Notes: generated by a model not told the origin, from the letters alone. Numbered from the stretch's first letter, positions 10,702-59,679 are shown. The stretch is 64,000 nucleotides of DNA from an uncultured Verrucomicrobiales bacterium (GCA_964651705.1 CAZYWZ010000016.1:967-64966); one strand, 5' to 3'. Program-made: numbers and translations.

Positions 10702-10717
10702 GGGTCATTACCAAGCC

Positions 10718-18989: not shown

Positions 18990-19003
18990 GAGTCCCCGTG
19001 AAA

Positions 19004-20171: not shown

Positions 20172-20405
20172 GAACTGGAAGACGACGGCCACGCTGGTGG
20201 GGCAGCTGATCGAGATCGTCAGCAAGGGCGGCAACTTCCTGCTTAACGTCGGCCCTACCGTCGAGGGCGTGATCCCCGCGCCGAGCATCGAGTGACTCCG
20301 CGACGTGGGGGAGTGGTTGAAAGTCAACGGTGAGGCCATCTACGGCGCCGGGCCATCGGCGCTGCCGCCGACGGCGGGGAAGAACAGCTCCCCCGCGTGG
20401 CGATA
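20172..20405 (+). pseudogene. Relic 3' fragment of a GH29 alpha-L-fucosidase gene with an in-frame TGA
   Basis: Translation is [60 protein letters not shown]..., with the stop at 20292-20294. It matches the KGGNxLLNxGP...[13 protein letters not shown] block of the intact GH29 genes at 12922 and 40860. There is no N-terminal catalytic part and no start codon. Confidence 0.6.
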
Positions 20406-20614
20406 AATGGACTGCAGCGACCACCGTCAAAAGCAATTTCCGATCCTTTTTACGCTCCCTTAACAAAAAGGCACGCCGGGCCACACCATCTCTTTACATG
20501 GAGGATGTATTGTGGGGTATGGTGTTGGCGGATGTCTCGAGAATGCCGCTCGCCCCGGCCCCGTTCCAGGGTCGCTTGTCGGCGCCAAGGACATCACGGA
20601 GTAAAGACGCCATC

Positions 20615-22141
20615 ATGAAGATGCTGTGGATATTGTCTGTCGGCTTGCTGGCCGGCGCGGCTGCCCTGGCGGCACCGAGTCCGTTTGATAGCGGTGTGGC
20701 GCCAACGGCCGAGGGGACGATCGACAGGTATGTTCTTGGCAGGCTGAAAGCGCTACAGATCGACCCGGCCAATCTCTGCCCGGATGCGGTTTTCGTCCGC
20801 CGGGCGTTCCTCGATATCATTGGCACGCTGCCCACGGCGAAGGAGGCAGGAGATTTCATCGAGGACAAGGATCCGAAGAAGCGCGGTGCGCTGATCGAGC
20901 GTTTGCTGGCGCGCGAGGAGTTTGCCGATTATTGGGCAATGAAGTGGTGCAACTTGCTGCGCGTCAAGTCGGAGTTCCCGATCAATCTCTGGCCCAACGC
21001 GGTGCAGGCGTATCACCGATGGATTCGGACCTGCCTCGCCGAGAACGTGCCGTACGATCGCTTCGTCCGCGAGATGCTCACGTCGAGCGGCAGCAATTTT
21101 CGCAAGCCGCAGGTCAATTTCTACCGCGCCGTCCAGAGCAAGGAACCGATGGCGCTCGCGCAGGCCGTGGCGCTGACATTCATGGGCGCACGCGCGGAGG
21201 CATGGCCCAAGGAACGCCTGGCCAACATGGCGCTGCTTTTCTCGCGCGTCGGCTACAAGACCACCGCCGAGTGGAAGGAAGAGATCGTCTTCTTCGATAT
21301 CGGCGGGACGACCGCCACGCCGTCTGCCGTTTTGCCCGACGGGATGAGGGTGACTCTGTCGCCGGCGCAAGACCCGCGCGCCGTGTTTGCCGACTGGCTC
21401 ATCAGGCCCGAGAATCCGTGGTTCACGCGCCACATCGCCAACCGCATCTGGTGCTGGCTGCTGGGGCGCGGCATCGTGCATGAGCCGGACGACATTCGCC
21501 CCGACAATCCCCCGCGCCATCCGGACCTGCTCCATCACCTGGAGCAGGAGCTGATTGCATCGCGCTACGACCTGAAGCATCTCTTCCGCCTGATCCTCAA
21601 CTCAAATACCTACCAGCTTTCGGTCGTCCCGCGCACCTCGCATCCGGAGCCCGAGACAGAGTTCGCTTGCTACCCGGTGCGCCGGCTGGAGGCGGAGGTG
21701 CTGATTGACGCGATCAACCAGGTCACCGGCATGACGGAGAGATACACCAGCCGCATCCCGGAACCGTTCACCTATATGCCGGAGGAGCAGCGTTCCATCA
21801 CGCTGGCGGACGCGAGCATCACCAGCGCGTTTCTCGATCTGTTCGGGCGCTGTCCGCGCAACACGGGCCTCGAAGCGGAGCAGCGCGGCAGTCTCCCGAC
21901 TGCCGCCCAGCAGCTGCATCTCCTGAACTCGAGCCACATCCGCAACAAGCTGGAGCAGGGCCCCAAGATTCGCGCGCTGATGCACTCCACAAGCAGTGCC
22001 CGCGATGCGGCCCGCGCGCTTTACCTGACGGTCCTCTCGCGTTACCCGACGGCGGAAGAATTGGAGGCGGTGCAGCGCCGCGTCGGCCCGGAATTGCTCT
22101 GGGCGTTGATCAACAGCGCGGAATTCCAGTTTCGACATTGA
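20615..22141 (+). CDS. DUF1549/DUF1553 domain protein (PSD1-type, lacking an N-terminal cytochrome-like PSCyt module)
   Basis: ATG 20615 gives the signal peptide MKMLWILSVGLLAGAAALAA. DUF1549-type block IDRYVLGRLKALQIDPA...FVRRAFLDIIGTLPTAKEAGDFIEDKDPKKRGALIERLLAREEFADYWAMKWCNLLRV. DUF1553-type tail ...LYLTVLSRYPTAEELEAV...LWALINSAEFQFRH. Confidence 0.85.
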   Translation: MKMLWILSVGLLAGAAALAAPSPFDSGVAPTAEGTIDRYVLGRLKALQIDPANLCPDAVFVRRAFLDIIGTLPTAKEAGDFIEDKDPKKRGALIERLLAREEFADYWAMKWCNLLRVKSEFPINLWPNAVQAYHRWIRTCLAENVPYDRFVREMLTSSGSNFRKPQVNFYRAVQSKEPMALAQAVALTFMGARAEAWPKERLANMALLFSRVGYKTTAEWKEEIVFFDIGGTTATPSAVLPDGMRVTLSPAQDPRAVFADWLIRPENPWFTRHIANRIWCWLLGRGIVHEPDDIRPDNPPRHPDLLHHLEQELIASRYDLKHLFRLILNSNTYQLSVVPRTSHPEPETEFACYPVRRLEAEVLIDAINQVTGMTERYTSRIPEPFTYMPEEQRSITLADASITSAFLDLFGRCPRNTGLEAEQRGSLPTAAQQLHLLNSSHIRNKLEQGPKIRALMHSTSSARDAARALYLTVLSRYPTAEELEAVQRRVGPELLWALINSAEFQFRH

Positions 22142-22158
22142 TGAAGGAGCCAGCGGCC

Positions 22159-23535
22159 ATGAACACACCCATCTCACGACGCGACATGTGGCGCCGCGGC
22201 CTGCTCGGTGCCGCGGGATTCTATCTCGCCGACAACCCTCTGATCCGTGCCTGGGCCGCATCGCCGCCGTCGCGGGCCGCGGGCAAGGCGAAGTCGGTGA
22301 TCCAAATCTGGCTGTGGGGCGGGCCGTCGCATCTCGACTTGTTCGATCCCAAGCCGGAGGCGGGCAGGGATTATTGCGGCCCATTCGACAAGCCGATCGA
22401 GACCAACGTGAGCGGCATCCGGATTTGCGAGATGCTGCCGCTGCTGGGCAAACAGGCGGACAAATATTCGCTCATCCGCAGCATGACCCACGGCAACAAC
22501 GCGCACGAGACCGCAACCTATATCGTACAGACCGGCCGCAAGGCCGGCGAGCGGCTCGTGTATCCGTGCGCGGGCGCGGTCGTGTCAATGTTCAAAGGCT
22601 ACGACGCTGGCTACCGGGGCAGCATACCGCCATACATCGTGCTGACCGAGCCGCTGGGGCGTTTTGACGAAACGGGCTTCCTCGGCACGCGCTACAAGCC
22701 GTTCGTCACGGGCGGCGATCCGTCGCAGGCCCGGTTCGCGGTGGAGGGCGTGGTCGCGGAAGGCATCACGGAGCAACAGCAGCGCGAGCGCCGCGACCTG
22801 CTCAACCGAGTGGACGCGCTCAGGCATGCGCTGCCGCGAAATGCGGCGTTGACCGCGCTGGCCCGCTCGCGCGACCAGGCCTACGACATGATCATCGGCG
22901 ATGGCGCGACTGCGTTCGACCTCTCGCAAGAGGCGGAAGCCCTGCGCGACCGCTATGGCCGCGCCTCGTTGCCGGCGACAGCGTCGGCGGCGCAGGTTGC
23001 GCCCCGCACCAAGTTCGGCCAATCGTGTCTCGTGGCTCGGCGGCTGGTCGAGCGCGGCGTTCCGTTCATCACCATCAACTATCCGGGCTGGGACACGCAC
23101 AAGGACAATTTCGGGGAGATGAAGCGCATGTTGCCGGACCTCGACAAGGGGCTGGCGGCGCTCATCCAGGATTTGTCGGAGCGCGGGCTGCTCGATAGCA
23201 CGATCATCTGGTGCGGCGGCGAGTTTGGCCGCACGCCGAAGGTGGACTGGCAGGCGCCGTGGAACGGCGGGCGCGGTCATTGGGGCAGCGCGTTCTGCGC
23301 GCTGGTGGCGGGCGGCGGTTTCAAGGGCGGCCACGTCGTCGGGGCGACAGACGCGCGCGGCGAGGAAGTGAAACAGCGCCCCGTTTATCCCGGCGACGTC
23401 ATCGGCACGATCTACAAACTGCTTGGCATCGATCCCGCCGCGAGCCTGCCGAACCCGCAAGGCCTGACCGCGAGCGTGATGCCCACGCCAGCCGAAGGTG
23501 TGCCGACGGGCGGGCTGTTGGGCGAGATCATTTGA
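22159..23535 (+). CDS. DUF1501 domain protein (sulfatase/alkaline-phosphatase-like fold) with a twin-arginine leader
   Basis: SD aaggag lies 10 nt before ATG 22159. TTG 22138 and ATG 22141 are alternatives that overlap the upstream stop. Leader ISRRDMWRRGLLGAAGFYLA. Motifs: KSVIQIWLWGGPSHLDLFDPKPEA, GWDTHKDNF, WCGGEFGRTP. Confidence 0.85.
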   Translation: MNTPISRRDMWRRGLLGAAGFYLADNPLIRAWAASPPSRAAGKAKSVIQIWLWGGPSHLDLFDPKPEAGRDYCGPFDKPIETNVSGIRICEMLPLLGKQADKYSLIRSMTHGNNAHETATYIVQTGRKAGERLVYPCAGAVVSMFKGYDAGYRGSIPPYIVLTEPLGRFDETGFLGTRYKPFVTGGDPSQARFAVEGVVAEGITEQQQRERRDLLNRVDALRHALPRNAALTALARSRDQAYDMIIGDGATAFDLSQEAEALRDRYGRASLPATASAAQVAPRTKFGQSCLVARRLVERGVPFITINYPGWDTHKDNFGEMKRMLPDLDKGLAALIQDLSERGLLDSTIIWCGGEFGRTPKVDWQAPWNGGRGHWGSAFCALVAGGGFKGGHVVGATDARGEEVKQRPVYPGDVIGTIYKLLGIDPAASLPNPQGLTASVMPTPAEGVPTGGLLGEII

Positions 23536-23550
23536 GGGCGGAGAGAACTC

Positions 23551-25788
23551 ATGAACTCATTCCGGCTATCCATGCTGCCGCTAACGTTTGCGATTGCCTC
23601 GACCGCGTTCGCGCAGGAGGGCCAAATGAGCGAGCCCCACGTGGGCTACATCTATCCGGCCGGCGGGCGGCGCGGCACGACGTTCGAGGCGACCGTCGGC
23701 GGGCGCTATCTCTATGCCGGCGGTGTCCACGTCTCCGGCTCGGGAGTCAAGGCGACAATCACCGATCAGGAGCGGCAAGTGACGCCGACCGAGCAATCGC
23801 AATTGAGCGAGAATCTGAGCAAGATTCAAGAGAAGCGAAAGCAAGGACAGCGCGTGACGCCGGAGGAGGCGAAGATGGCCGAGGAGATCCGGCGGAAGCT
23901 TAACAGGTTTGGCCGTCGGCTGACAAACCCGTCGCTGGGTGAGTTCATCACGCTCCAAGTCAGCATCGATCCGGCGGCGACGCCCGGCAATCGGGAGATC
24001 AGGCTGGAGACGCCCGCGGGGCTGTCGAATCCGCTGGTATTCCAGGTCGGCGAATTGCCGGAGGTCAGCGAGAGGGATTGGAAGAACATCCCCAAGTCGC
24101 GAGGCAGCATGGAACCGGAGCTTGACCCAAAGCCGCCGGAGAAGGACATCGCGCTGCCGGTCACGCTGAACGGCCAGATTCCCCCTGGCGGCCTCGACCG
24201 GTATCGGTTCACGGCTCGCAAAGGTCAGCAACTCGTGGTCCTGGTCCGCGCCCGGGAACTTATCCCATTTATCTCCGACGCCGTGCCCGGCTGGTTCCGC
24301 GCCGCGGTCGCGTTGACTGATGCCGGCGGAAAGGAGCTGGCCTACACCGACGATTTTCAGTTTCGTCCCGACCCGGTCCTTCACTACAAAGTGCCCGCCG
24401 ACGGCACCTACGTCCTCCAAATCAAGGACGCGCTCTACCGCGGCCGCGAGGATTTCGTCTATCGCGTCACGCTTGGCGAACTGCCGTTCCTCACCGCGAT
24501 TTTTCCGTTGGGCGGGAGGATAGGCTCGAGGGTGACCGTCGGCACCAGTGGCTGGAATCTGCCGTTCAACCAGCTGCCGATCGATCTCGGAAAGAGCGCC
24601 CCGGGCATCTCGCCCATCTCGTGCGCCGGATTGGCCAACGGCGTGCCGTTCGCGGCGGACACTTTGCCGGAGTGTTTTGAGAAGGAGCCGAACGACGATG
24701 TCGCGAACGCGCAGCCGGTGGCGCTGCCGGTCATCATCAACGGTCGCGCCGATCGGCCCGGCGACTTCGACGTGTTTCGCTTCGAGGGCAAGGCGGGCGA
24801 TCGGGTTGTCGCGGAGGTTTGTGCTCGCCGGCTCGATTCGCCGCTCGACTCCATGCTCATAGTCACCGACGCGACAGGCAAACAACTCGAGTTCAACGAC
24901 GACCACGAGGACAAGGGCTCCGCGCTCAACACGCACCACGCGGACTCCTTCCTGATGCTTGCGCTGCCTGCGGCCGGCAGCTACTTCCTGCACCTCGGCG
25001 ACACGCAGCAAGCCGGTGGCGCGAGCTATAGTTATCGGCTGCGGCTCAGCGCGCCGCGTCCCGATTTCGAACTGCGCGTCACTCCCTCCGCCCTCAACGT
25101 CCGCGGCGGCTCGAGCGTACCGTTGACCGTCCACGCGCTGCGCAAGGACGGTTTCACCGGCCAGATCGCGTTGCGGCTGAAGGACGCGCCCAAGGGGTTC
25201 ACGCTGACCGCCGCCGACATTCCAGGGGGACAGGAGAAGGCCCGCTTCACGCTGAATGCCTCGCCGGAATCCGAAATGGAACCGTTCAGCGTGGCCATAG
25301 AAGGGCGGGCGATCCTCGCCGGCCGCGAAGTCGTGCGCGTCGCGATGCCAGCAGACGACATGACACAGTCGTTCGCCTACCGTCATCTCGTCCCTGCGCA
25401 GGACTTGAAAGTCGCCGTGATCGGCCGCTTCCGGCCCGGCGATGCCGCTCGAATTCTCACCGACACGCCGCTGAGGATTCCCGCCGGCGGAACCGCCGGG
25501 CTTAGGGCGTCCATGCCCGTCGGCCCGCTGATCACGAAAGTGGAATACGAACTCAGCGAACCGCCCGACGGCATCACCATCAAAAGCGCGACCTCGACAG
25601 GCGGCGACGGTGACATCGTCCTGCAAGCCGATGCCGAAAAAGTCAAACCCGGCGCGAAAGGCAACCTGATCATCTCCGTCTTTGCCCAAGCGCCGCAGGC
25701 GTCCGGCAAGGGAGGCGGCGGCGCCCCGCGCCGAATTCCGTTCGGCGCGTTGCCCGCCATTCCGTTCGAGATTGTCACCGGGAAGTGA
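23551..25788 (+). CDS. Secreted protein with two pre-peptidase C-terminal (PPC)-like domains
   Basis: Signal peptide MNSFRLSMLPLTFAIASTAFAQ. PPC-like modules: DRYRFTARKGQQLVVLV...DGTYVLQIKDALYRGREDFVYRVTLG, and EKEPNDDVANAQPVALPVIINGRADRPGDFDVFRFEGKAGDRVV...GSYFLHLGDTQQAGGASYSYRLRLS. Confidence 0.55.
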   Translation: MNSFRLSMLPLTFAIASTAFAQEGQMSEPHVGYIYPAGGRRGTTFEATVGGRYLYAGGVHVSGSGVKATITDQERQVTPTEQSQLSENLSKIQEKRKQGQRVTPEEAKMAEEIRRKLNRFGRRLTNPSLGEFITLQVSIDPAATPGNREIRLETPAGLSNPLVFQVGELPEVSERDWKNIPKSRGSMEPELDPKPPEKDIALPVTLNGQIPPGGLDRYRFTARKGQQLVVLVRARELIPFISDAVPGWFRAAVALTDAGGKELAYTDDFQFRPDPVLHYKVPADGTYVLQIKDALYRGREDFVYRVTLGELPFLTAIFPLGGRIGSRVTVGTSGWNLPFNQLPIDLGKSAPGISPISCAGLANGVPFAADTLPECFEKEPNDDVANAQPVALPVIINGRADRPGDFDVFRFEGKAGDRVVAEVCARRLDSPLDSMLIVTDATGKQLEFNDDHEDKGSALNTHHADSFLMLALPAAGSYFLHLGDTQQAGGASYSYRLRLSAPRPDFELRVTPSALNVRGGSSVPLTVHALRKDGFTGQIALRLKDAPKGFTLTAADIPGGQEKARFTLNASPESEMEPFSVAIEGRAILAGREVVRVAMPADDMTQSFAYRHLVPAQDLKVAVIGRFRPGDAARILTDTPLRIPAGGTAGLRASMPVGPLITKVEYELSEPPDGITIKSATSTGGDGDIVLQADAEKVKPGAKGNLIISVFAQAPQASGKGGGGAPRRIPFGALPAIPFEIVTGK

Positions 25789-35799: not shown

Positions 35800-38700
35800 T
35801 CAGCGAGATACGGGGTCGTTCCGAGGGCGAAATCCCGGTGCCAGCAACTGGCATTGCGCCACCTGGCCGAAGTTGGTCCCGGCGACATGCCAGACGACGC
35901 GCTTGTCTGGCGCGACCTCGAAGATGTGCGCGCCAAGCCTGTCGCCCTCGGTCTTTGCGCCCCAGTTGCAGACGACGGTATTGCCGTTGGGCAGTCGCTG
36001 GATTCCCGCCGGGACCGCGACATGGATGTCGGGGATGTCCTCGGGGGCGAGTTCCCAGACGACATTCCCGGAGGGGTCGTATTCCGTCACGGATCTTCCG
36101 GCGCTGATGAGGGTGTTGCCGTCCTCGAGGCGGATGGCGCACACGGGCGTGGGCTTCCGGGGAAACTCGCGGAGGAGCGACCCATCCCTCGCGTACTCGC
36201 GCACGGCGCCCTCGGCGGTGAAAGGCACGAGATAGGTGCCCTGCGGCGTCTTGCGGCACATGCGGAACTGGGCGTGCGGCCTCTTCTCTGTGGTCGAGAG
36301 CGGCAATTCGAAAATGACATCGCCGCGGCGGTTGACCTCGATGAGGCGACATTGCCCCACGATGCCGATCAGGACGTTGCCATCGGGCAACGGCTGGCAG
36401 GTGGGCACCTCGTCCGGCGCCCGGACCCGATATTCCCAGACGACCTTGCGGTCACGCGTGACCTCCTGGACGCCGTGCAGGTGCGTCGTTAGCACGTTGC
36501 CGTCCGGCAGCATCCAAGCGTCCTGCGGGTTGGGCGCGTGGTAGTCCCAGGCGACCTCGCCACCCTCGTCGAGCAGGAAGACCTTCTTCAGCTGGTGGCT
36601 GGTCGCGAGGATCGCGCGCGGGCCCCAGAGATTCTCGTGCCAGAAGTTGCCCTTCAGCGGCGCGCCGCGAAACTCGGTGCCCACGACATTCTCGGGGTCG
36701 ACATCCAGTTCGGGCCAGACGAGTTCTCCCCGGAGCTGGGCCTCCTCGCGGACGTAGGCGCCGAGGCGCAGGGAGTTGGAATCCAGCCAGAGTACGATCT
36801 TGTGGCGGTCGGTGTCCGAAACGGAGGCGCGATGGTTCTCGTCGAACAGTGCGCGGCCGATCCGCGAGTGGCGTGCGCCGAAGCGGCCGGGGATGGTGCG
36901 GGAGCCCCCGTGCACCCCGCTGTAATCCGACGCCATATTCCGGAACATCGCGCCGGAGAACCAGAACGTGTACTCCTCCTTGAGCGCCTCGTAGCCCATG
37001 TCCCGGGGCCCCCGCTGTTTTTCCGCATGGCACGGGACGCAAGAGCGCTCGAAGATCGGCCGGATCTGCCTGTGGTAGCTGACCGGCTCGACGGGCCCGG
37101 CCTCCGGCGCGATGGGCGAGGGGGCGCGCCGCAGCGCGAGCGGCGTGCCCGCGAGGGCCGAGGCGCGCTGCACGGGCTCGTGGCAACCCTGGCACGTGAG
37201 CTGTTCGCCGGGGCGAACGAACGCCACCGATCGCATCGAGTGCACGGCGCGATAGTGCTCGTCCAGCGCCTGGAAGATCAGCGCCTTGGCCACCGGCGCC
37301 TCGAAATAGGCGCTGCCATCCTCTTCCACCGGAACGATGCCCAGCGGGATGCGCGGGGTGTTCTCCCGCTCGTAGCCAATCATGGGCTCGCCCATCGCAT
37401 GGTTGGATTTCAGGATATTCTGCGTGACGCGGAGCCACTTGATCTTCGTGCCCGGCGGGAAGGGCATGTCGGAATCGTAGACGTTCATCACCGCGATGGT
37501 GGCGGGACGCGTCGCCCTCTCGGGTGCCGCGACGGGCGGGCGCCGGCGGGGCCGAAGGGGGATCGGGTCGATGAGCCGGAGGCGCTCGTCGTGCGCGCAG
37601 GGCAGTGCCGTCAATTCGCACAGCAGCTCCTTGTTCCCGTATCGGTCGAGCAGCACGAGGTTCTCCCACGCGTTGCAGACGAAGAAGTCCTCTCCCAGCG
37701 GCCAGGGGCTGCCGTACTTGTAGTGCCGGCGCCCGGCGTTCTCGCTCTCGGGGAATGGCTCCTCCGGGGTGATGCGGCGGATCTGCGACATGCGCCCGTC
37801 GTCGGGTATGCGGAGATCGAGGGTGCAGAGCGAACCGAACGCCTCGCCGTGGTGCGGTGCCGCGGTGAACACGTACAATGGCGAATCCGGTATGGCGCGG
37901 ATGCCCATTTCCACCAGCGGTGTCCCCATGCGGCCGTCGATCTCCCGTCCCCCGACCACCTCGAATCTCGGCCGGTCGGGGAAGGAGTGATACGGCTGCG
38001 GGTAATTGCCGTGGGGGGCGCGGGGATCGGAACCATCGGGCCGGCAGAGCCAGATCCGCGAGCCGAGGCAATTCTCGCGGTCGGTGTAGTCCCAGCGCGT
38101 GAAGACGACCTGGCCATGGTTGTTCACCGTGGGGTTCCACTCGCTCGTCTCAAAATAGCTCATGGGGCGGATGTCGGTGCCGTCCGCCGCCATCGAGAAC
38201 ATCGTGTAGGTGCGGACCTTCAGATAGCCGGCAAAGCACCGGATGTGGCCGCCGCGCCGCTCGGAGACGAATGCGATGCGGCCGTCGGGCAACCAGCAGG
38301 GATCGAAATCGTTATAGGGGCCGTCGGTCAGTTGCGTGAGCCCGGTGCCGTCCGCGTTGATGCGGAACAGGTGGAAGCATGACTTCGTGCCAAAACCCCA
38401 TTCGTGCTCGCGGTTGTCCGTCCACGCGAAGACCACCGATCGGCCGTCGTACGAGAGGTCCGGGGTCGCGAAGGCGCCATGATCCAACCGGCGTCCCGCC
38501 ATGCGGCCATTCTGGACGACGGCGTCCCGCGTGAGGTCGAAGACCCGGGGCGCCTTCCCCCAGTCTCGGACGACGTACAGGCCGCCCACGGGCAATGCGG
38601 TGCAGCCGAAATATTGCGTGGTGAAATGCCCGCCCTGGGGGTCTTTCGTGACGGGGTTGGATCTGACCGAGCCCGCAAAGGTCCCGCGCGCCACGCAAAG

Positions 38701-39906
38701 GATCCCGTCGAAATCCAACAGGGGATTGGACAGCGCGATCTGGCGGCGCACCGCGCAGGCCGCCAGATAGAGGGCGAGCGCCTCCGGCGATTCCGCCGCG
38801 GGGCGCGAGGCCAGCAGGGCCGAACGCAAGGCCCCCAGATCGCTTCGCGCCGCGCCGGCGTACCCGAGGCGGTCCGCGAGGGCCTCGGCCCGCCGTATCA
38901 CGGTGCCGGCCGGCCCGCCGTCATCGGGCCAGATCAGCGCATGGCGATCGTAGGCCTGCAGTTCGATGTCCGCCTCGGCCGCCGGGTACCACGGCCTCCG
39001 GCTCTCGGGATACTCCAGCTTGCCGACCCATCTGAAATCGTAGAGCCACTCGCGCAGCACGGCGTCGCGGACTGCCGGGGGATCGACGGATGCGAGGGCG
39101 AGGCGATTGGCGATGTCGCGCAGGGCCGCGCGGGCGGGCGCGGTGTCTTCCGCGGGCGGCAGAGGCTGAAACGCCGCGCTCATCTTCGGGATCGATGGCC
39201 CCGGGCCCGCCCTGGTGGCGGCGACAAACTGCGCCCGGAGGCCGAGCGGGGAGGCGTCGGCAAAATGCCCGTCGCCCATCGCATCGAAGCGCCAGAGTCC
39301 CAGCGTGGAGGCGTCCGCCTCGGGGGCGCGGTCGGGGAGTCCCGCGGGCGGCCGCGCCCCACGGGACAGCCGCGCCTCGTCGATCCACCCGCCGCACGCC
39401 AACTGCCCGTCAACGAGGCTCCCGATGCAAAATGCCTTCGGCGGGTCCTTGGCCACCGGGCCCGCCAGCGCCTGATCGCACTGTTCCTCGCCATCGACAT
39501 AGAGGCGGATCCGGTCGGTCTCCAGCACGGCACCGACATGGTGCCATCTGCCGTCGGCGATGTCGCGGGCCGTGCGCGCGTGATCCGGCCTCCGGCCCGG
39601 AAGATAGGCGCAGAGCGCGCCGGTGCGCGGCGCCGTGAACAGCTCCCAGTGCCCCGGCGCGGCCTTGGCATCGCGCGCGACGATCACGTTGTAGCCCGAT
39701 TTTTTCTCGAGCCGGACCCAGCACTCGAAGGTCAGCGGAAATTCCGCGAATGCCGGCGATGGCCGCAGGAGCGCCGAGCCCCGCCGGGCGTCCAGCGCCT
39801 TGCCGAATCGCCCCTCGTCCCATCCCGCCGCACCTGCGGCGCACGTCACGACGGCCGACAGACAGGTGGCCGCGACCCATCGCGAGATGGCGGCGCCGGC
39901 GCTCAT
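35800..39906 (-). CDS. 1368-aa exported multidomain protein: LamG-like jelly-roll, TolB/PD40-like beta-propeller region, two CxxCH motifs, C-terminal beta-propeller (architecture reminiscent of 'HzsA-related' proteins of PVC bacteria)
   Basis: - Signal peptide: MSAGAAISRWVAATCLSAVVTCAAGAAG.
- LamG-type: FTFECWVRLEKKSGYNVIVARD...DGRWHHVGAVLETDRIRLYVDGE.
- PD40-like: SYDGRSVVFAWTDN, INADGTGLTQLTDGPYNDFDPCWLPDGRIAFVSER.
- CxxCH motifs: CQGCH at nt 37180-37194 and CVPCH at nt 37027-37041.
- C-terminal repeats: LPDGNVLTTH.../LPDGNVLIGI.../LEDGNTLISA.../LPNGNTVVCN. Confidence 0.65.
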   Translation of the reverse strand: MSAGAAISRWVAATCLSAVVTCAAGAAGWDEGRFGKALDARRGSALLRPSPAFAEFPLTFECWVRLEKKSGYNVIVARDAKAAPGHWELFTAPRTGALCAYLPGRRPDHARTARDIADGRWHHVGAVLETDRIRLYVDGEEQCDQALAGPVAKDPPKAFCIGSLVDGQLACGGWIDEARLSRGARPPAGLPDRAPEADASTLGLWRFDAMGDGHFADASPLGLRAQFVAATRAGPGPSIPKMSAAFQPLPPAEDTAPARAALRDIANRLALASVDPPAVRDAVLREWLYDFRWVGKLEYPESRRPWYPAAEADIELQAYDRHALIWPDDGGPAGTVIRRAEALADRLGYAGAARSDLGALRSALLASRPAAESPEALALYLAACAVRRQIALSNPLLDFDGILCVARGTFAGSVRSNPVTKDPQGGHFTTQYFGCTALPVGGLYVVRDWGKAPRVFDLTRDAVVQNGRMAGRRLDHGAFATPDLSYDGRSVVFAWTDNREHEWGFGTKSCFHLFRINADGTGLTQLTDGPYNDFDPCWLPDGRIAFVSERRGGHIRCFAGYLKVRTYTMFSMAADGTDIRPMSYFETSEWNPTVNNHGQVVFTRWDYTDRENCLGSRIWLCRPDGSDPRAPHGNYPQPYHSFPDRPRFEVVGGREIDGRMGTPLVEMGIRAIPDSPLYVFTAAPHHGEAFGSLCTLDLRIPDDGRMSQIRRITPEEPFPESENAGRRHYKYGSPWPLGEDFFVCNAWENLVLLDRYGNKELLCELTALPCAHDERLRLIDPIPLRPRRRPPVAAPERATRPATIAVMNVYDSDMPFPPGTKIKWLRVTQNILKSNHAMGEPMIGYERENTPRIPLGIVPVEEDGSAYFEAPVAKALIFQALDEHYRAVHSMRSVAFVRPGEQLTCQGCHEPVQRASALAGTPLALRRAPSPIAPEAGPVEPVSYHRQIRPIFERSCVPCHAEKQRGPRDMGYEALKEEYTFWFSGAMFRNMASDYSGVHGGSRTIPGRFGARHSRIGRALFDENHRASVSDTDRHKIVLWLDSNSLRLGAYVREEAQLRGELVWPELDVDPENVVGTEFRGAPLKGNFWHENLWGPRAILATSHQLKKVFLLDEGGEVAWDYHAPNPQDAWMLPDGNVLTTHLHGVQEVTRDRKVVWEYRVRAPDEVPTCQPLPDGNVLIGIVGQCRLIEVNRRGDVIFELPLSTTEKRPHAQFRMCRKTPQGTYLVPFTAEGAVREYARDGSLLREFPRKPTPVCAIRLEDGNTLISAGRSVTEYDPSGNVVWELAPEDIPDIHVAVPAGIQRLPNGNTVVCNWGAKTEGDRLGAHIFEVAPDKRVVWHVAGTNFGQVAQCQLLAPGFRPRNDPVSR

Positions 39907-40730
39907 CGGGTCCCGGCCCCCCCCGATCGGGCGGGCGCGCCCACCAGCCCGTACCCGAATCGCCGCGAGATCCGTTCCGCATGCTCCCGGACCTTCCGCC
40001 CCAGGCCATCCAGCGCTCCGACCTTGAGCCGGAAGGCGGGGCCGATGACCGTCACCGCCGCAATCGGCAGCCCCATCCGGTTAAGTATGGGCGCGGCCGC
40101 GCAATGGACGCCGTCCAGGTGCTCTCCCCTGTCCAGGGCGAATCCCCGTCTCCGGATCTGCGACAGGTGCTCGCGAAAGCGGCCCTTGTTGGTGATCGAC
40201 GCCGGCGTCCAGCGCCGGAATCGCGCGGCGCGCAGGATCGCCTCCCGGCCGCCGGGCTCCATGAAAGCCAGCAGCGCCTTCGGCGATGCCGACACGTTGA
40301 GCGGCTGCCGGAGGCCCGCGTCACACACCAGGCGAAACGGGTGGATCCCGGGCACCTGCTCCACCACGAGGCATTCGTCGCCGGCCATGACGCTCAGGAT
40401 CGTCGTCTCCCCCGTCGCGTCGCGCAAGTCCCGCATCGGGCCCATCGCGGCCTCCATCAGCGTCGCCGACGAGGCGCTGCCGTAGGCCATCCCGAAGAGC
40501 TTTGGGCTGAGCCCCAGCCGCCGCGTCTCCCCGTCCCGCTCCACGTACCCGTGCATCAGCAGCGTGTTCGCGATCCGAAACACGCTGTTGCGCGGCAGGC
40601 CCCGATCGCGGGCGATCTCGCTGAGCGTCAGCCCCCCCGCGCGCGTGCGCAGCAGCTCCAGGATGGAGAGCGCGCGGTCGAGGTTGGGCACGCTGAATCG
40701 CGAGGGGCCGGCGGCGGCGGGCGATTTCAT
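39903..40730 (-). CDS. IclR-family transcriptional regulator
   Basis: Winged-HTH block LDRALSILELLRTRAGGLTLSEIARDRGLPRNSVFRIANTLLMHGYVERDGETRRLGLSPKLFGMA, followed by an IclR effector-domain-sized C-terminus. The stop overlaps the downstream ATG (ATGA, 39903-39906). Confidence 0.85.
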   Translation of the reverse strand: MKSPAAAGPSRFSVPNLDRALSILELLRTRAGGLTLSEIARDRGLPRNSVFRIANTLLMHGYVERDGETRRLGLSPKLFGMAYGSASSATLMEAAMGPMRDLRDATGETTILSVMAGDECLVVEQVPGIHPFRLVCDAGLRQPLNVSASPKALLAFMEPGGREAILRAARFRRWTPASITNKGRFREHLSQIRRRGFALDRGEHLDGVHCAAAPILNRMGLPIAAVTVIGPAFRLKVGALDGLGRKVREHAERISRRFGYGLVGAPARSGGAGTR

Positions 40731-40736
40731 GATGTG

Positions 40737-40746
40737 CTATATATAG
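40737..40746. promoter_or_regulatory. Perfect 10-bp AT-rich palindrome CTATATATAG in the iclR/fucosidase divergent intergenic region (candidate -10 element and/or IclR operator)
   Basis: The palindrome is read directly from the sequence. It lies 6 nt upstream of the iclR ATG (40730, minus strand) within the only AT-rich patch of a GC-rich region. A half-site-like CTATAT recurs at 40768-40773. Confidence 0.25.
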
Positions 40747-40859
40747 TCAGCATGACTAAGCGACAACCTATATTTCCCGCGGCGGCGGACGGCCGAGCCG
40801 GGCGGGGGTCGGCCGATGATCCTTGATAAGATGCGCGCGCTTGCGAGGATGGCCCGCCG

Positions 40860-42989
40860 ATGGGACAGGCAGCCATCCTCCTCGCCGCCCTGATGCGGGC
40901 GGCATGTTGCGGATACCTTCTGTTGTGCGTGGGCGCCGCCCGCGGGGCGCCGCCCGCGCCGGCCCGGTATGAGGCGGCCTGGCCGTCGCTGGATGCCCGG
41001 CCGACCCCGGCATGGTATCCCGCGGCGAAGTTCGGCATCTTCATCCACTGGGGCGTCTACTCCGTGCCGGCATGGGGGCCGAAAGGCCAGTACGCGGAGT
41101 GGTATTGGAGCGCGCTGAAGAACGAGAAATCGGATACGGCGGCCTTTCACCGGCGCGTGTATGGGCTGGACTTCACATACGAACAGTTCGCGCCGCTGTT
41201 CAAAGCGGAACTCTTCGATCCCGACCGGTGGGCCGACGTCTTCACGCGCAGCGGCGCCCGGTATGTCGTGCTCACGTCCAAGCATCACGAGGGTTTCTGC
41301 CTGTGGCCCAGCGCACAGAGTCCCGGCTGGAATGCCATGGAGACCGGCCCGCATCGCGATTTGCTCGGCGACCTCACGTCGGCCGTGCGCAAACGCGGCC
41401 TCAAGATGGGCTGCTATTATTCGCTCTATGAATGGAACCACCCGCTCTATCTCTCCGATGTCCCGCGCTACGTGAGCGAGCACATGATGCCCCAGTTCAA
41501 GGATCTGGTGATGCGCTATCGGCCCGCGCTCATTTTCGCCGATGGTGAGTGGAGCCATGACAGCGCCACGTGGCGCTCGCCCGAACTACTCGCGTGGCTG
41601 TTCAACGAGGCGCCGAATCGCGAGGAGGTGGTCATCAACGACCGCTGGGGCAAGGATTGCCGCAGCGTCCACGGCGGCTATTTTACCACGGAGTACGGCG
41701 AAGTGGGCAAGGGGAAGGAATTGGCGAGCGGGCGCCCATGGGAGGAGTGCCGTGGCATGGGGGCCTCGTTTGGCCACAACCGTAACGAGGGCGCGGCCGA
41801 ATACCGGACGACCCCGGAGCTGATCGCGCTGCTGGCCCAGCTGGTCTGCCGGGGCGGCAATCTGTTGCTAAACATCGGCCCCGCCGCCGACGGCACCATT
41901 CCGGTTATCATGGAAGAGCGCCTGCTGGCGATGGGCGAATGGCTGAAGGTGAACGGCGAGGCGATCTACGGCACGCGGCCCTGGTGGGCGCACGAGGAAC
42001 AGGATTCGGTGTTCTACACGCGGCGGGGCGATGCGGTGTATGCCATCCTGGCGAAGTGGCCAGCGGGGGGACGGCTGCGCCTGCATTTTCCCAAGCCGAC
42101 CGCCGCCACTCGCGCCCGCATGGTCGGGAACGATCTCGACATCCCTGTCGCCAGCCAAGGCGAGGACATGGTGCTGGATCTGTCGGCCTTCCGTCCGGAC
42201 ATGTTGCCCTGCTCCCACGCGTGGGTGATTCGGTTGACGGACCTCGACACCCGCCACATCCGGTTCGCGCCGACCTGGGAGTGCTTCGCCGTCGAGGGGC
42301 GCGTGAAGGTATCGGCGCACGCAGACTGGTCCGGGAAGCCTTTCGATCAGGAGACCGTGGTGCGGTACACCTTGGACGACGATGAGCCAACGGCCGATTC
42401 GCCAGTTTGCGATGGAATCGTGACGCTGACCCGGAGCGCCACGCTGCGCGCCGCGTGTTTCCGCAACGCCCGTCGGGTCTCGCCGGTGTTCTCGGCGCCG
42501 TATCTGGTGACGCCGTTCGACATCAGTCCCGCGCTGGATGGCTTGCCCCCGAGGCCGGACATATTCCTGGGAGACCTCGCGCCGGTGTCGGCGGTCACCG
42601 GTTGGCGCCAGGTGACGGCGAACTCCTGCGCCGATGGCACGCCGCTGAACATCAATGGCGTGGCCTTTGACAAAGGCATGGGCGTGCACTCGCGCGCGGA
42701 ACTTGTGTATTCACTGAAGCCCGAGTACAAGCAGTTCGTGGCGCGCGTGGGGATTCACGGAAAGGGTGCCCGGGGCAGCGTTCAGGTGGAGGCGTGGGTC
42801 GGCAAACTGCGCGTCCATCGTTCGCCCGTCCTGCGCGGCGGCATCAAACCGTGGAACATCGCCGTGGACCTTCCGGTCGATGCCGAAGGGCCGCTGCGCC
42901 TCCTCGTGCTCGACGGCGGCGATGGCGGATCGTATGACCTGGCCGATTTCGGCGACGCCGGCTTCATTGCGGCAGAGAAGAAGAAATGA
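40860..42989 (+). CDS. GH29 alpha-L-fucosidase with a C-terminal NPCBM-like carbohydrate-binding module
   Basis: GH29 blocks AKFGIFIHWGVYSVPAWG, YVVLTSKHHEGFCLWPS, GCYYSLYEWNHP, LIFADGEW, RGGNLLLNIGPAADGTIP, GEWLKVNGEAIYGT. C-terminal block FLGDLAPVSAVTGWRQVTANSCADGTPLNINGVAFDKGMGVHSRAELVYSL...GSVQVEAWV...LLVLDGGDGGSYDLADFGDAGF is typical of NPCBM. Confidence 0.85.
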   Translation: MGQAAILLAALMRAACCGYLLLCVGAARGAPPAPARYEAAWPSLDARPTPAWYPAAKFGIFIHWGVYSVPAWGPKGQYAEWYWSALKNEKSDTAAFHRRVYGLDFTYEQFAPLFKAELFDPDRWADVFTRSGARYVVLTSKHHEGFCLWPSAQSPGWNAMETGPHRDLLGDLTSAVRKRGLKMGCYYSLYEWNHPLYLSDVPRYVSEHMMPQFKDLVMRYRPALIFADGEWSHDSATWRSPELLAWLFNEAPNREEVVINDRWGKDCRSVHGGYFTTEYGEVGKGKELASGRPWEECRGMGASFGHNRNEGAAEYRTTPELIALLAQLVCRGGNLLLNIGPAADGTIPVIMEERLLAMGEWLKVNGEAIYGTRPWWAHEEQDSVFYTRRGDAVYAILAKWPAGGRLRLHFPKPTAATRARMVGNDLDIPVASQGEDMVLDLSAFRPDMLPCSHAWVIRLTDLDTRHIRFAPTWECFAVEGRVKVSAHADWSGKPFDQETVVRYTLDDDEPTADSPVCDGIVTLTRSATLRAACFRNARRVSPVFSAPYLVTPFDISPALDGLPPRPDIFLGDLAPVSAVTGWRQVTANSCADGTPLNINGVAFDKGMGVHSRAELVYSLKPEYKQFVARVGIHGKGARGSVQVEAWVGKLRVHRSPVLRGGIKPWNIAVDLPVDAEGPLRLLVLDGGDGGSYDLADFGDAGFIAAEKKK

Positions 42990-53320: not shown

Positions 53321-53566
53321 ATGATCTTCTGCGACACATCGACCCTGGCCAAGTACTATGTTCCGGAGGCGGGGCCCGCTGGGGTGCGATCGCGCCTCGA
53401 CGGCGAGGACGAGGTCGTTCTGTCGGATCTGGCGCGGGCCGAACTCATGGGCGTGTTTCATCGGCGGTTGCGGGAGGGCAAATGGACCAGGGCCGAATTT
53501 TCGGCCTTCGCGCGACCCGGATCGCGTAGAATGCCAGGGCCAAGAGTCGTGGCCGCCCGAGATTAG
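53321..53566 (+). pseudogene. Truncated PIN-domain (VapC) toxin gene (TA module 3)
   Basis: MIFCDTSTLAKYYVPEAG...VVLSDLARAELMGVFHRRLREGKWTRAEF is a typical VapC N-terminal half with the first Asp and Glu. The product then diverges and stops at 81 aa. The distal acidic residues (the DALHLA-type block) are missing and were not found in any frame downstream. Confidence 0.5.
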
Positions 53567-53858
53567 GGGTCTCGCGCAGGGACGCGGGAAGATTCTTGCC
53601 GGCTGGACGGGGCATTCCCCGACCCCCTACGGCCGCGCATCGATCTCGACCACGGGGGCGCCCCCGGAGACCCTCTGCGCCGCCTTCGGCCCCGCGGAAA
53701 CGCCCGAAGGCGTGACTAAGAGCCTTTTCCTACGCTCGGGAAGATGGAAGATGAAAAATCGGCGATCTGCCATCGTCCATCGGCAATGGGACAGTTCCGT
53801 CTCGACCATGCGTGGGCTGGCCACTACCCTTTGGACCCAGCCTGATAAGGAGAGCGAT

Positions 53859-56800
53859 ATGAGCCAGGGAACCCATCATAGGAAAGTCATTGCCGTCTGC
53901 GCGGCGTGGGCGTGGCTCCTTGGCGCGGGCGCGTTCGCGCGCGCGGAGGACGAGGCGCAGGGGGTTATCGCGAAGAGCGGATTTTCCGGGGGCGTGGTGG
54001 CGCATGTCCATGGCGCGGATGACGCGCTGTTGCGCTCCTTGTGCGAGCGGCGCCCGAACATGCTGGGCCAGTTGCTCGTGGCGGAGGAGGACGGCGCCCG
54101 GCGGGCGCGCGAGGCGCTTGTCGCGTCGGGCCTGCACGGGAAGATCACCGTGGGGCAATGGCGAGGCGGGGTCCTGCCGTTCATCGATAACTTCGTGAAT
54201 CTCCTGATCGTGTCCGGTGCCGACGCGGTGCCGCGGGAGGAGATCTTGCGCGTGCTCGCGCCGGAGGGGACGGCCCTCGTCGGCGGGGAGAGGGTCGTCA
54301 AACCGCGCCCTGCCACGATGGACGATTGGACACACCAGCTCTACGACGCCACCGGCAATGCCGTCTCGAAGGACAAGGTGCTGCGGCCGCCGCTGCAACA
54401 CCTGCAGTGGATCGGCGGTCCGCGCTGGTCGCGTCACCACGACAAGATGTCCAGCGTCTCGGCCTGCGTGAGCGGCGACGGGAAGGTGTTCTATATCTTC
54501 GACGAGGGGAGCACGTTCACGCCATACCTGCCCTGCCACTGGAAGCTCATCACGCGCGACGCGTTCAACGGGGTCATTTTGTGGAAGCGGCCGATCGATC
54601 GGTGGAGCGGCAATCTCTACGGGCTCAAGAGCGGCCCCTCGACCCTGCCGCGCCGGGTGGTCGTGGCGGGCAAGCGTGTCTGCGCGACTCTGGGGATCGA
54701 TGCCCCCGTCTCGGTGTTGGACACGGATACCGGGGAAGTCCTCAAAACCCTCGCCGGGACGGAGGGCACCGAGGAGATCATCCACGAAGATGGGATGCTC
54801 TATCTGGTGGCCGACACGAACGAGGACAAGGAGGAATTCGAGAACGGGCCGCGGATGAATTTCCCTGGGGGCAAATGGATCATCCGCAAGAAGCAGGTCC
54901 TGTGCTGCGATCTCGACGCGGGGAAGGTGCTCTGGTCGAAATCCTTCGACTGGGTCGCGCCGGCCACGCTGAGCGCCTCGAAGGGCAAGGTGTATCTCTT
55001 CGATGGAAAGCACGTGGTCGCGCTGGGCCGCGAGACCGGCGAGGTGCTGTGGAAATCCGCGGAACTGCCTGTGTGGCAACAGATGGCGACTTTCTACGCG
55101 CCGAGGCTGGTGGTGCAGGGCGGGGTGGTGATGTTTGTCGGCGGCGAAGACTACGTGCCGCACCGGGGCAGCGCCGGGGGCCAGGTGGCCGGGATGTCTA
55201 CGGAGAATGGCAAGATCCTCTGGAAAGAGAAGCACCTCTCGGGCGGCTACCAGTCGCCCGGCGACCTGCTGGTGATCGGTGGCAAGATGTGGGCGGCGAA
55301 TGTCACCTCCGGGAGGAAGGAGAGCCCCACGGGGACGGGAGAGATCGTGGCCCGGAATCCGGGCACCGGCCAGGAAGAGAAGAAGTATGACGATATCCCG
55401 GCGTATTGGTTCCACCATCGATGCTACCCGGCCAAGGCCACGGAGGACTTCCTCATCATGAGCCGCACCGGCACGGAATTCGTGGATCTCGATACGGGCG
55501 AGTGGACGTTGCACCACTGGGTGCGGGGCGCGTGCCTGTACGGCATCATGCCCGCCAACGGGTTGCTCTACGCGCCTCAGCACCCCTGCTCGTGCTACAT
55601 CGGCGCGAAGATGTACGGTTTCACCGCGCTGGCGCCCGCGGGTGCCTCGAGGGCCGTCCTCCAGCCCCTGCCCGACGATCGGCGGCTGAGCGCCGCCCCC
55701 GGTGCGGGCACGGCCTTCCCGAGACGAGAGGCGCGGGAGAAAGGCGAATGGCCCACCTACAGGGGCGACGTCGCCCGCAGCGGGCTCGTCGGCGGGATCA
55801 ACGCGCCCGGCCGATTGAAGTGGTCGACCAAGCTGCCCGGGGCGCCGACGCAGCCGGTGATCGCCGGACAGAAAGTTCTCGTGGCCGACAAGGACAACCC
55901 GGTCCTGTGCGCCTTCGACGCCGCCACCGGCGCGCCGGCCTGGCGGTTCATCCCCGGGGGGCGGATCGATTCCTCGCCCGCCATCTACAAGGGTCTGGTC
56001 TACTTCGGGGCCTCGGACGGATTTGTCTATTGCCTCGACCTGGGAAGCGGCGCCTTGCGCTGGAAATATCAGGCGGCTCCGGCGGTGGCGCATCACATGT
56101 ACATGGAGCGGATGGAGGCGACCCATCCGGTCCACGGCAACGTCCTGGTGATGAACGACCGGCTCTACACCGTGGCCGGGCGCTCGATGTTCAACGATGG
56201 CGGCATCCGCTTCCTGATTCTCGACGCGCTCACGGGGCGCAAGATCAAGGAGCACATCATGGACGACAAGGTGCCCGGCACGGGGGAGTCGCTGCAGATG
56301 CAGCACGAGATCCTCAACATGCCGATGGCCCTGTCCGACCTGCTGTCCTCGAATGGGAAGAAGATATTCATGCGGTATCAGCCCTTCGATCTGGAAGGGA
56401 ACCGCCTCGACCTGATTTTCAGCGGCAAGCTGTACGGCTACGAGCCCGGGAGCTACGGGGAGCACGTCGCGATGACGCACGATCCGGTCGCCACGAAACA
56501 GAAGGGCGAGGACGCACACCTCTTCAGCGGCACCGGATTCCTGGACGACAGCTGGTGGCATCGCACCTATTGGATCTACGGCAAATATCACGCCTCGGGC
56601 CACAGCGGTTACACGCAGGCGGGCGCCAAGGGCGCGCCGGCCGGCCGCATGATCGCGTTCGACCAGGACCGGATCTACACATGGGGCCGGCTCCAGCGCT
56701 TCTTCAAGTGGTCGGAGGAATACGTCTTTCACCTCCACGCCAAGAATTATGAGTACGAGGACCAGTGGAGCGTCATGCTGCCGATCCTGGTGCGGGCGAT

Positions 56801-57737: not shown

Positions 57738-57803
57738 ACGGGCCTCGCGCGAGACAGGGGTCGGGGATCCGGCGGATCTCGTCCGGCGGATCGGGCAGGA
57801 TCC

Positions 57804-58788
<985 letters not shown>

Positions 58789-58808
<20 letters not shown>

Positions 58809-59679
58809 CCAGCGCCTGCGCCAGCTCCAGCTGCGCACGCGATACCCGGTCGAACACCTCCTCACGGGTGAGTACCGGAGCGTCTTCAAGGGCCGGGGGA
58901 TGGATTTCGACGAGATCTGCCCGTACCACCCCGGCGACGAGGTCCGGTCCATCGACTGGAACGTGACCGCCCGGACGGGCCGGCCCCACGTGAGGCGGTA
59001 CATCGAGGAGCGCGAGCTGGCCGTCTGGCTGGTGGTGGACGCCTCGGCCTCCTGCCGGATCGCCGCGCCCGGGCGCACGAAGTGGGATGCGATGCACGAG
59101 CTCGCGGCGCTGATCACGCTTTCCGCGACCCGCAATCACGACCGGGTCGGGATGATCCTCTGGTCCGACCGGGTCGAGCAGATCCTCCAGCCCAGGAAAG
59201 GCCGGCAGCACGCCCTGCGCCTGCTGGCGGATCTCCTGGCCGCCGAGCCCCGCGGCCGAGGCAGCGATCCCGCGGCCGCCCTCGATGCGCTCCTTCACAT
59301 GGCGAGGCGACGCGCCCTCGTCCTGCTGCTGTCCGATTTCCTCTTCGGCGTGGATCGCGAGCAGCTCGGCGCGGTGGCGTTCCGTCACGACCTCGTGGGC
59401 ATCGCCGTGAATCATCCCGCCGAGCGCCAGCCGCCGCCCTGCGGCCTGGCCGCCGTCCGTGATTCGGAGACCGGCGGGACTCTGGTCGCCGACCTCGGGC
59501 CGGCGGGACGCGATGCCTGCCGGGACGCGTTTGGCGCCCGGCGCGCGCGGCTGCGGGAGGAGTTCGGGGCGGTCCGCGCCGATCTTCTCGAGCTCGACAC
59601 CCGAAGCGATTGCGCGGAAGAATTGGCCCGATTCTTCCGCGGTCGCATGAGGAGGACCGCCGATGAGACCGGGGGTTGA
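58789..59679 (+). CDS. DUF58 domain protein (MoxR partner)
   Basis: EYRSVFKGRGMDFDEICPYHPGDEVRSIDWNVTARTGRPHVRRYIEEREL is the DUF58 signature. ATG 58789 overlaps the moxR 3' end by 20 nt. Confidence 0.85.

Follow-up and report, generated by a model that had tools for sequence, protein, structure and literature searches.

An IclR-family regulator gene joined to the gene of a predicted exported dihaem protein with a hydrazine-synthase-alpha-like core in a verrucomicrobial fucoidan-type locus

What is a very large, apparently exported protein doing directly behind the gene of a cytoplasmic regulator? The question is raised by a 64,000-nucleotide stretch of DNA from an uncultured Verrucomicrobiales bacterium (GCA_964651705.1 CAZYWZ010000016.1:967-64966), referred to in its entirety as the window, in which two adjoining minus-strand genes at 35800-40730 encode an IclR-family regulator (iclR) and a 1368-aa protein, here called the giant. 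An earlier model-generated reading, made from the sequence alone (the sequence-only reading), had described the pair as a translationally coupled two-gene operon. The giant was found to carry two CxxCH haem-c motifs, absent from that reading, within a core resembling the alpha subunit of hydrazine synthase (HZS-alpha), and the pair is probably an autoregulated operon, headed by its regulator gene, that encodes an exported dihaem redox enzyme or module equipped with lectin-like modules. The features of the two genes are as follows.

39903-40730, minus strand: iclR, IclR-family regulator, 275 aa (Pfam HTH_IclR and IclR_C)
40530-40682, minus strand: HTH_IclR domain (PF09339), residues 17-67 (E 1.9e-17)
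39963-40475, minus strand: IclR_C effector domain (PF01614), residues 86-256 (E 7e-36)
39903-39906, minus strand: ATGA stop/start overlap of iclR and the giant gene, identical in the 97% orthologue at locus L087
35800-39906, minus strand: giant gene, predicted exported modular dihaem protein, 1368 aa (Pfam, homologues, structure model)
39826-39906, minus strand: predicted signal peptide, residues ~1-27 (hydrophobic N-terminus in 33/33 aligned homologues)
39220-39822, minus strand: LamG/LNS jelly-roll, residues 29-229 (Pfam and model)
38722-39159, minus strand: all-helical domain, residues 250-395 (six helices, pLDDT ~90-97)
37507-38709, minus strand: PD40/TolB-type beta-propeller of the HZS-alpha-like core, residues ~400-800 (Pfam, model)
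37177-37410, minus strand: HZS_alpha middle domain, residues 833-910 (PF18582, E 9e-18, 65 bits vs 26.6)
37180-37194, minus strand: first haem-c motif, CQGCH, residues 905-909, closing the HZS_alpha middle domain
36712-37089, minus strand: cytochrome-c-like domain, residues 940-1065 (weak Cytochrome_CBB3 match; helical in the model)
37027-37041, minus strand: second haem-c motif, CVPCH, residues 956-960, within the cytochrome-c-like domain
35857-36591, minus strand: C-terminal six-bladed propeller of Mala_s_1-like/3no2 type, residues 1106-1350 (Pfam, PDB, Foldseek)

Open reading frame (ORF) calling on the window placed iclR at 39903-40730 (minus strand, 275 aa) and the giant gene at 35800-39906 (minus strand, 1368 aa), reproducing exactly the coordinates and the ATGA overlap at 39903-39906 given by the sequence-only reading. 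At the junction the minus strand reads CCCGATGAGC, with the giant ATG at 39906-39904 and the iclR TGA at 39905-39903. Both genes are real, because sequence searches returned hundreds of protein homologues and a signal sequence was present in 33/33 aligned giants.

Behind its signal peptide the giant has, from N- to C-terminus, LamG, the helical domain, a PD40-type propeller, the haem-bearing middle domain, a cytochrome c domain and a 3NO2-like propeller. An AlphaFold2 model of residues 200-1368 had a predicted local distance difference test score (pLDDT) of 77.7 and a predicted template-modelling score (pTM) of 0.77, and a second model of residues 1-470, covering the signal helix, LamG and six-helix domain, had a pLDDT of 82.4. 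The N-terminal helix spans residues 3-24 in the model, and the hydrophobic signal sequence fits the export that haem-c attachment requires. LamG was assigned by both fold and Pfam (Laminin_G_3, PF13385, residues 50-187, E 4e-16; jelly-roll pLDDT ~90-98), with Foldseek matches to perlecan LG3, the thrombospondin-1 N-terminal domain (TSPN), PAPP-A, the AbnA C-terminal domain and pentraxin. For the helical domain at residues 250-395, no separate structural match was obtained. Pfam located one PD40 repeat at residues 523-553. The C-terminal propeller was likewise assigned by signature and fold (Mala_s_1-like, PF22701, residues 1128-1315, E 7e-24, 85-90 bits), matching PDB entry 3no2 at E 1e-29 by sequence, E 1e-42 by profile and a Foldseek TM of 0.86, with LPDGNVL-type repeats at residues 1133, 1173, 1260 and 1305.

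The LamG domain, the PD40 blades and the second propeller with LPDGN(V/T)L repeats, all proposed in the sequence-only reading, were thus confirmed by Pfam and by the repeat positions, and the Laminin_G_3, PD40 and HZS_alpha middle domain models that it had named all gave matches. Its statement that the giant bears no carbohydrate-active enzyme (CAZyme) or sulfatase signature also held in both Pfam and NCBIfam, neither of which, up to an E value of 0.1, returned a domain of any glycoside hydrolase, lyase, esterase or sulfatase. Two other identities were rejected: the giant shares with TolB of the Tol-Pal system the PD40 repeats alone (equivalog score 25.7 bits, cut-off 343), and the C-terminal propeller had no Pfam match as ASST/arylsulfotransferase at E up to 0.01.

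When residues 200-1368 were compared with the PDB using Foldseek, the specific matches were 3NO2 and the hydrazine synthase alpha chains 5c2v_A and 5c2v_D, and the rest were generic propellers. The match to HZS-alpha had an E value of ~3e-17 (2.8e-17 for 5c2v_A) over 837-844 columns, with a TM(target) of 0.51. Sequence searches of the PDB reached HZS-alpha solely via the middle domain (23 bits), so that the relation across the whole core comes from Foldseek; in the NCBIfam hydrazine_alpha model (NF052339), giant residues 856-913 align to model positions 531-588. Like the Kuenenia stuttgartiensis protein (kuste2861, PDB 5C2V chain A), the giant has a propeller, then a middle domain ending in CxxCH, and then a cytochrome c domain that bears another CxxCH. 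It differs in being only ~15% identical, in adding LamG, the helical domain and the C-terminal propeller, and in its host, which is a heterotroph with a sulfated-glycan locus, whereas HZS belongs to anammox bacteria.

The giant is not a hydrazine synthase. Its hydrazine_alpha equivalog score was 26.5 bits against a cut-off of 800, from residues 856-913 only; a tblastn search with the beta-gamma-like protein of locus L014 found no beta-gamma gene in the window; and the host is a glycan degrader. In the anammox enzyme, haem alpha-I is ligated by Tyr591, four residues past the CxxCH histidine, while His587 and Cys303 bind zinc (PMC12758564). The giant has CQGCHEPVQR, with Gln rather than Tyr at the +4 position, a comparison in which residues were mapped by motif and not by structural superposition. 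Since the Tyr591-type ligand is lacking, a canonical His-ligated haem is expected in the giant.

Uncharacterised HZS-alpha-like proteins outside anammox bacteria have already been published. In the work of Hagglund et al. 2025 there were >600 structural hits whose sole annotation was 'HZS_alpha domain-containing' and for which no function had been confirmed; the residues key to HZS were not conserved in these non-anammox homologues (PMC12758564). The giant resembles their clades I-IV in being a haem-c protein of HZS-alpha fold that is predicted to be exported and to have a canonical haem pocket, in a group that spans Planctomycetota and other phyla, and it carries an HZS_alpha domain outside Brocadiia. 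Those clades were selected by a co-located beta-gamma gene (PMC12758564), which the window giant lacks, and the giant further differs in carrying LamG and a 3no2-like propeller and in being led by an IclR gene. Some clade I-IV homologues pair with a fused beta-gamma gene (propeller plus CCP-like), as at loci L014 and L024, which hold close full-length relatives of the window giant. At L014 (5209-12038), in a Chthoniobacter metagenome-assembled genome, the order is IclR, a 623-aa gene, then a full-length giant 59% identical to that of the window; the 623-aa protein is HZS beta-gamma-like, consisting of a seven-bladed propeller and a CCP_MauG/RoxA-like dihaem domain in which there are two CxxCH.

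The core defines a large family. Pattern scanning of GTDB, with each species represented by a single genome, gave at least 591 loci, and phmmer with core residues 380-1070 against 50%-identity cluster representatives gave 1131 proteins at E <= 1e-30. Relatives that match the giant over its full length, with 53-80% identity, come from Verrucomicrobiota, Planctomycetota, Armatimonadota, Hydrogenedentota, Kiritimatiellales and Victivallales and, where named, are labelled 'hypothetical' or by domain content. Both CxxCH motifs are invariant in 33-38 close homologues and are kept in 81-83 of the 83 diverse members of a family-wide alignment. In the sequence-only reading the giant was a 'binding or redox' protein, and the invariant CxxCH pairs point to the redox half of that description. 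The conserved unit runs from residue ~380 to ~1065, with 115 positions conserved at >=95%. Most of the invariant polar residues of the family fall in the propeller, namely H427, R550, R551, C557, E589, W605-D606-Y607, D609, R610, H632, H685 and H686; among individual positions, H685, H686 and Y607 are each kept in 83/83 members, C557 and, in the middle domain, M891 in 82/83, and H999 in 62/83.

Around this unit the accessory domains vary and may be LamG, F5/8C, FGE, the C-terminal propeller, or none. LamG is optional (occupancy ~40-65% across the family, 1-5 copies), the C-terminal propeller is present in ~25% of the family, and some members carry F5/8-type-C plus an FGE-sulfatase domain. In a 1966-aa protein at L024 (8001-13799) the core is preceded by four to five LamG repeats. 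Paralogues are often grouped, with two to four of them inside a 20-kb stretch (L008, L040, L041, L046, L051-L055, L064 and L066). By analogy, this pattern of a modular, expanding family resembles that of CAZymes and sulfatases.

The product of iclR is a canonical, full-length IclR protein by its HTH domain, its effector domain and its whole length, matching TM0065 (1mkm_A) end to end (residues 16-260, E 6e-25). Its named homologues include KdgR and XynR at 32-37% identity. None of the NCBIfam equivalog cut-offs was reached, the best being BhcR (183 bits vs 350), followed by PcaR (127.5 vs 284.75), KdgR (107.5 vs 275), IclR (103 vs 380) and AllR (83 vs 406).

Conservation of the linkage was assessed from both sides. 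On the giant side, the giant gene of L087 is directly preceded by an IclR gene in the same direction (giant 97% identical, IclR 95%), and the pair is also found at L001/L088 (giant 80%, IclR 79%, gap 53 nt) and L002/L003 (giant 62%, IclR 42%, gap 11 nt), so that the co-directional junctions of orthologues range from -4 to 53 nt. The flanks differ, with riboflavin genes and sulfatases at L001, GH43, esterase and GH10 genes at L002, and fucosidases in the window. At L014 the beta-gamma-like gene stands between the IclR gene and the 59% giant. In a Verrucomicrobiae genome (L105:3053-8085), an IclR gene (P0129; product 48% identical to that of the window) stands 12 nt ahead of the gene for a 1396-aa giant that unites HZS_alpha, F5/8C and FGE domains and whose core aligns to window giant residues 350-1051 at 27% identity with both CxxCH present. 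The two-gene unit of the sequence-only reading therefore stands to the extent that the pair is kept in 97%, 80% and 62% relatives with differing flanks. The overlap as a general feature does not: ATGA is limited to the window and L087, and L001, L002 and L105 have a gap (11-53 nt) with a Shine-Dalgarno sequence.

On the regulator side, the contexts of seven IclR relatives (42-48% identity), and of the L002 IclR (42%) as an eighth, were surveyed, and each of them heads a co-directional gene cluster. P0136, P0142 and P0133 precede PSCyt/PSD1+DUF1501 pairs, and P0130, P0139 and P0137 precede other genes typical of the Planctomycetes-Verrucomicrobia-Chlamydiae (PVC) group, several with secreted-protein domains. 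On the P0142 contig the order is IclR, PSCyt1/2/PSD1, DUF1501, a 331-aa stand-alone Mala_s_1-like propeller and an SDR gene, so the propeller family found at the giant C-terminus also occurs unfused, in the company of a different haem-c giant. Chance is a very unlikely explanation for four independent adjacencies among ~100 loci, and for a member of the giant's family next to two out of the seven regulator relatives, by a rough estimate that puts IclR genes well under 1% of genes and the giant's family at ~0.1%. Read from these gene orders, the linkage is real, with at least four independent recurrences, and confined to certain lineages.

If the two genes form one unit, where would it be transcribed from, and what would the regulator bind? 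Upstream of iclR lies a short region common to iclR and a divergent fucosidase operon, with the following features.

40731-40859, no strand assigned: divergent intergenic region of iclR and the GH29 fucosidase operon, 129 bp
40761-40766, minus strand: -35-like TTGTCG (by eye and conservation)
40738-40743, minus strand: -10-like TATATA, ending 7 nt before the iclR ATG
40744-40758, no strand assigned: candidate IclR operator, perfect palindrome TAGTCA-TGC-TGACTA (TAGTCA-N3-TGACTA), inside the 17-nt spacer

The proposed iclR promoter, located by eye and by conservation, reads on the minus strand TTGTCG, 17 nt, TATATA, 7 nt, ATG. Since TATATA ends only 7 nt before the ATG, the iclR mRNA is probably leaderless or nearly so. 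No Shine-Dalgarno sequence precedes iclR, and the giant start is also without a clear one, unlike those of the gapped orthologues. L087 has the same arrangement of promoter and palindrome without change; in L001 the palindrome is half-conserved and the arrangement is recognisable as TAGTCAT...CTATATAT, though the upstream gene there differs. The palindrome occurs once in the 64 kb at <=2 mismatches, which leaves no further copies in the window as a regulon signal. It lies ~100 bp from the fucosidase ATG, and may have a second role at the divergent fucosidase promoter.

The neighbours on both sides are as the sequence-only reading had them, a divergent fucosidase/sulfatase operon and a convergent enzyme, there called three-module. 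The divergent neighbour is a GH29+NPCBM fucosidase (40860-42989, plus strand) followed by two sulfatases, and the convergent neighbour (30098-35641, plus strand, 1847 aa) is a single ORF fusing GH106 and sulfatase, in which a GH106 alpha-L-rhamnosidase-type domain is joined to sulfatase and SGSH_C domains. With 11 sulfatase-domain genes, 4 clear GH29 fucosidases, GH106 and GH141-like beta-helix proteins, the whole window is a fucoidan-type locus.

The reading that we favour, that of an autoregulated operon, would work as follows. The iclR and giant genes would form a two-gene operon transcribed from the promoter immediately upstream of iclR. IclR, as a cytoplasmic small-molecule sensor, would most likely bind TAGTCA-N3-TGACTA between -35 and -10 and keep its own operon repressed, perhaps together with the divergent GH29/sulfatase operon, until a metabolite releases it. 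That the giant produces or captures the inducer, as the sequence-only reading suggested, is a conjecture towards which these results point neither way. The giant would be exported through Sec and have two c-type haems covalently attached. Its HZS-alpha-like core (propeller, haem middle domain, cytochrome c) would act as a catalytic or electron-transfer module, and LamG and the C-terminal propeller would be optional, interchangeable modules that target this core to a ligand. The ligand would most plausibly be a glycan or a glycan-derived compound, given that the lectin-like modules are interchangeable, that paralogues lie in tandem and that the locus is of fucoidan type, the last being a weak argument.

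Several observations weigh against this reading. The IclR gene is absent from ~90 other loci, among them ~12 with full-length relatives at 59-65% identity, so that the linkage, whose conservation the sequence-only reading had named as a check, was found in several relatives and does not characterise the giant's family as a whole. Among the 127 nearest ORFs (nearest called ORF per side at ~80 loci, codon-usage gene calling, Pfam scan of two pseudo-alignments), no consistent partner was dominant, the counts being CCP_MauG 5, GFO_IDH_MocA 6 and sulfatase 4. Glycan context proves little, as such genes are ubiquitous in PVC genomes. The palindrome is not significant alone, with 20/100 shuffles giving at least one match, and the operators of other IclR-giant pairs look different from it. 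The giant may also have an internal promoter inside iclR; a consensus sigma-70 scan of 35400-41100, iclR interior included, gave 0 matches.

The position of the candidate operator in the common 129-bp region, ~100 bp upstream of the fucosidase start, suits another explanation as well, in which IclR chiefly regulates the divergent GH29 fucosidase/sulfatase operon, sensing a fucose- or sugar-acid-derived metabolite, with the giant as a passenger. This is the sole IclR-family gene in the window, which holds no second IclR and no paralogue of the giant, KdgR and XynR are among its named homologues, and the large ORFs scanned in the window gave no further transcription-factor domain. We nevertheless regard the explanation as doubtful: L001 (80%) and L002 (62%) keep the pair beside other neighbours and without a divergent fucosidase, the promoter motif travels with the pair, and IclR relatives repeatedly precede HZS-alpha-like or PSCyt/PSD1 genes. 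Roles of IclR at its own operon and at the fucosidase operon are compatible and do not exclude each other. The function of the giant is a separate matter. It could be a periplasmic or surface dihaem scaffold for electron transfer and binding that exchanges electrons with a catalytic partner of its own, such as a beta-gamma-like CCP/MauG protein whose gene would lie elsewhere in the genome. M891 (82/83) or H999 (62/83) could be a sixth haem ligand, typical of electron-transfer haems, the anammox alpha subunit works only inside a complex (PMC12758564), and a beta-gamma-like dihaem gene adjoins a family gene in 9 fetched loci (L014, L024, L040, L046, L066, L074, L101, L102 and L104). However, ~90% of loci have no such neighbour, and the invariant His, Arg, Asp, Tyr and Cys of the propeller suggest an active site rather than a docking surface, so that a scaffold seems a possible but not a probable role.

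A broader and rather unlikely proposal is that of an unrecognised class of haem-dependent oxidative enzymes acting on complex (e.g. sulfated) polysaccharides or on fragments of them, in which the core would be combined in CAZyme manner with LamG, F5/8C, PA14-type modules and propellers, sometimes with a CCP/MauG/RoxA-like beta-gamma partner, and in which a dedicated PVC IclR clade would sense the oxidised product. The giant might instead handle hydroxylamine, NO or peroxide by chemistry related to that of HZS, and have nothing to do with glycans. The fold and middle domain common to HZS-alpha, and the pairing of some relatives with CCP/MauG-like proteins, are consistent with this, but the hydrazine_alpha score (26.5 bits vs 800), the lack of Tyr at +4 and the lack of conservation of key HZS residues in non-anammox homologues (PMC12758564) argue against it, and it hardly explains the variable lectin-like modules (LamG, F5/8C, CBM6 neighbours) or the tandem paralogy; we consider it improbable.

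Among known systems, KdgR and pectate lyases are a precedent for a cytoplasmic IclR-type regulator controlling exported enzymes, and what the sequence-only reading called an unusual layout, a cytoplasmic regulator with an exported protein, is ordinary logic. KdgR-type IclR proteins share with the window regulator the control of exported glycan-locus proteins from the cytoplasm and a palindromic operator overlapping the promoter (both putative here); the window IclR differs in scoring below the KdgR equivalog cut-off and in being the first gene of the operon that it presumably controls. The proteins encoded by the PSCyt1/PSCyt2/PSD1+DUF1501 pairs of Planctomycetes and Verrucomicrobia are likewise large and exported, are specific to PVC bacteria, and contain a CxxCH cytochrome-like module as well as lectin-like inserts (PA14); the pairs are preceded by IclR genes 43-47% identical to that of the window. 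No sequence homology of these proteins to the giant core was detected, however, and the pair in the window itself is without an IclR gene. BACCAC_01654 of Bacteroides caccae (PDB 3NO2) resembles the C-terminal ~245-270 residues of the giant, with the PHAQFR and CNW motifs in common, but is a stand-alone protein, and since its function is unknown the match gives no functional transfer. Literature searches on the function of 3NO2 and of PSCyt/PSD1/DUF1501 found nothing, and a proteomics paper on fucoidan and Planctomycetota (PMC11685898) makes no mention of cytochrome, haem, LamG, DUF1501, IclR or hydrazine.

No earlier publication was found on the architecture of LamG, HZS-alpha-like core and 3NO2-like propeller and its very strong conservation across phyla, or on one IclR clade recurrently coupled to exported haem-c giants of two unrelated families. 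With the regulatory layout being ordinary, the value of the locus lies in a large redox family and in the regulator as an experimental handle. The core family exceeds 1000 clusters at 50% identity, with no functionally characterised member, and its full-length members are ~60% identical across Verrucomicrobiota, Planctomycetota, Armatimonadota and Hydrogenedentota. It bears on the origin of hydrazine synthase, because its fold is common to the alpha subunit of that anammox signature enzyme. Should the giant be a redox enzyme for recalcitrant glycans, an oxidative route would be added to marine and soil carbon turnover, for which hydrolases and sulfatases alone have so far been invoked. The recurrent IclR offers a way in, as its ligand should point to the pathway.

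Some further observations concern the surroundings of family members and the rest of the window. PF12831 FAD_oxidored genes recur beside the giant or beside IclR relatives (L004, L107, L108, L109), and may be another redox theme. Past the end of the giant gene, one weak feature was recorded.

35690-35704, minus strand: weak terminator-like hairpin, ~100 nt past the giant stop codon

The number of terminator-like matches was not above shuffle expectation, and Rfam and tRNA scans of the whole window gave no match. Three large ORFs inside the sulfatase/fucosidase locus (10337-12694, 17711-20101 and 23551-25788, plus strand; 785, 796 and 745 aa) had no Pfam match at E <= 1e-5 to 1e-6. At 20330-23535 (plus strand), a PSCyt2/PSD1 gene (603 aa) is followed with a 4-nt overlap by a DUF1501 gene (465 aa), without an IclR gene; this is the PVC-specific pair that IclR relatives P0133, P0136 and P0142 precede in other genomes. 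At 53358-63152 (plus strand), a 1459-aa BamB/PQQ_2-type propeller protein is followed by a MoxR AAA ATPase, a DUF58 protein and two VWA proteins, which is the gene order of a Bat/MoxR-type operon.

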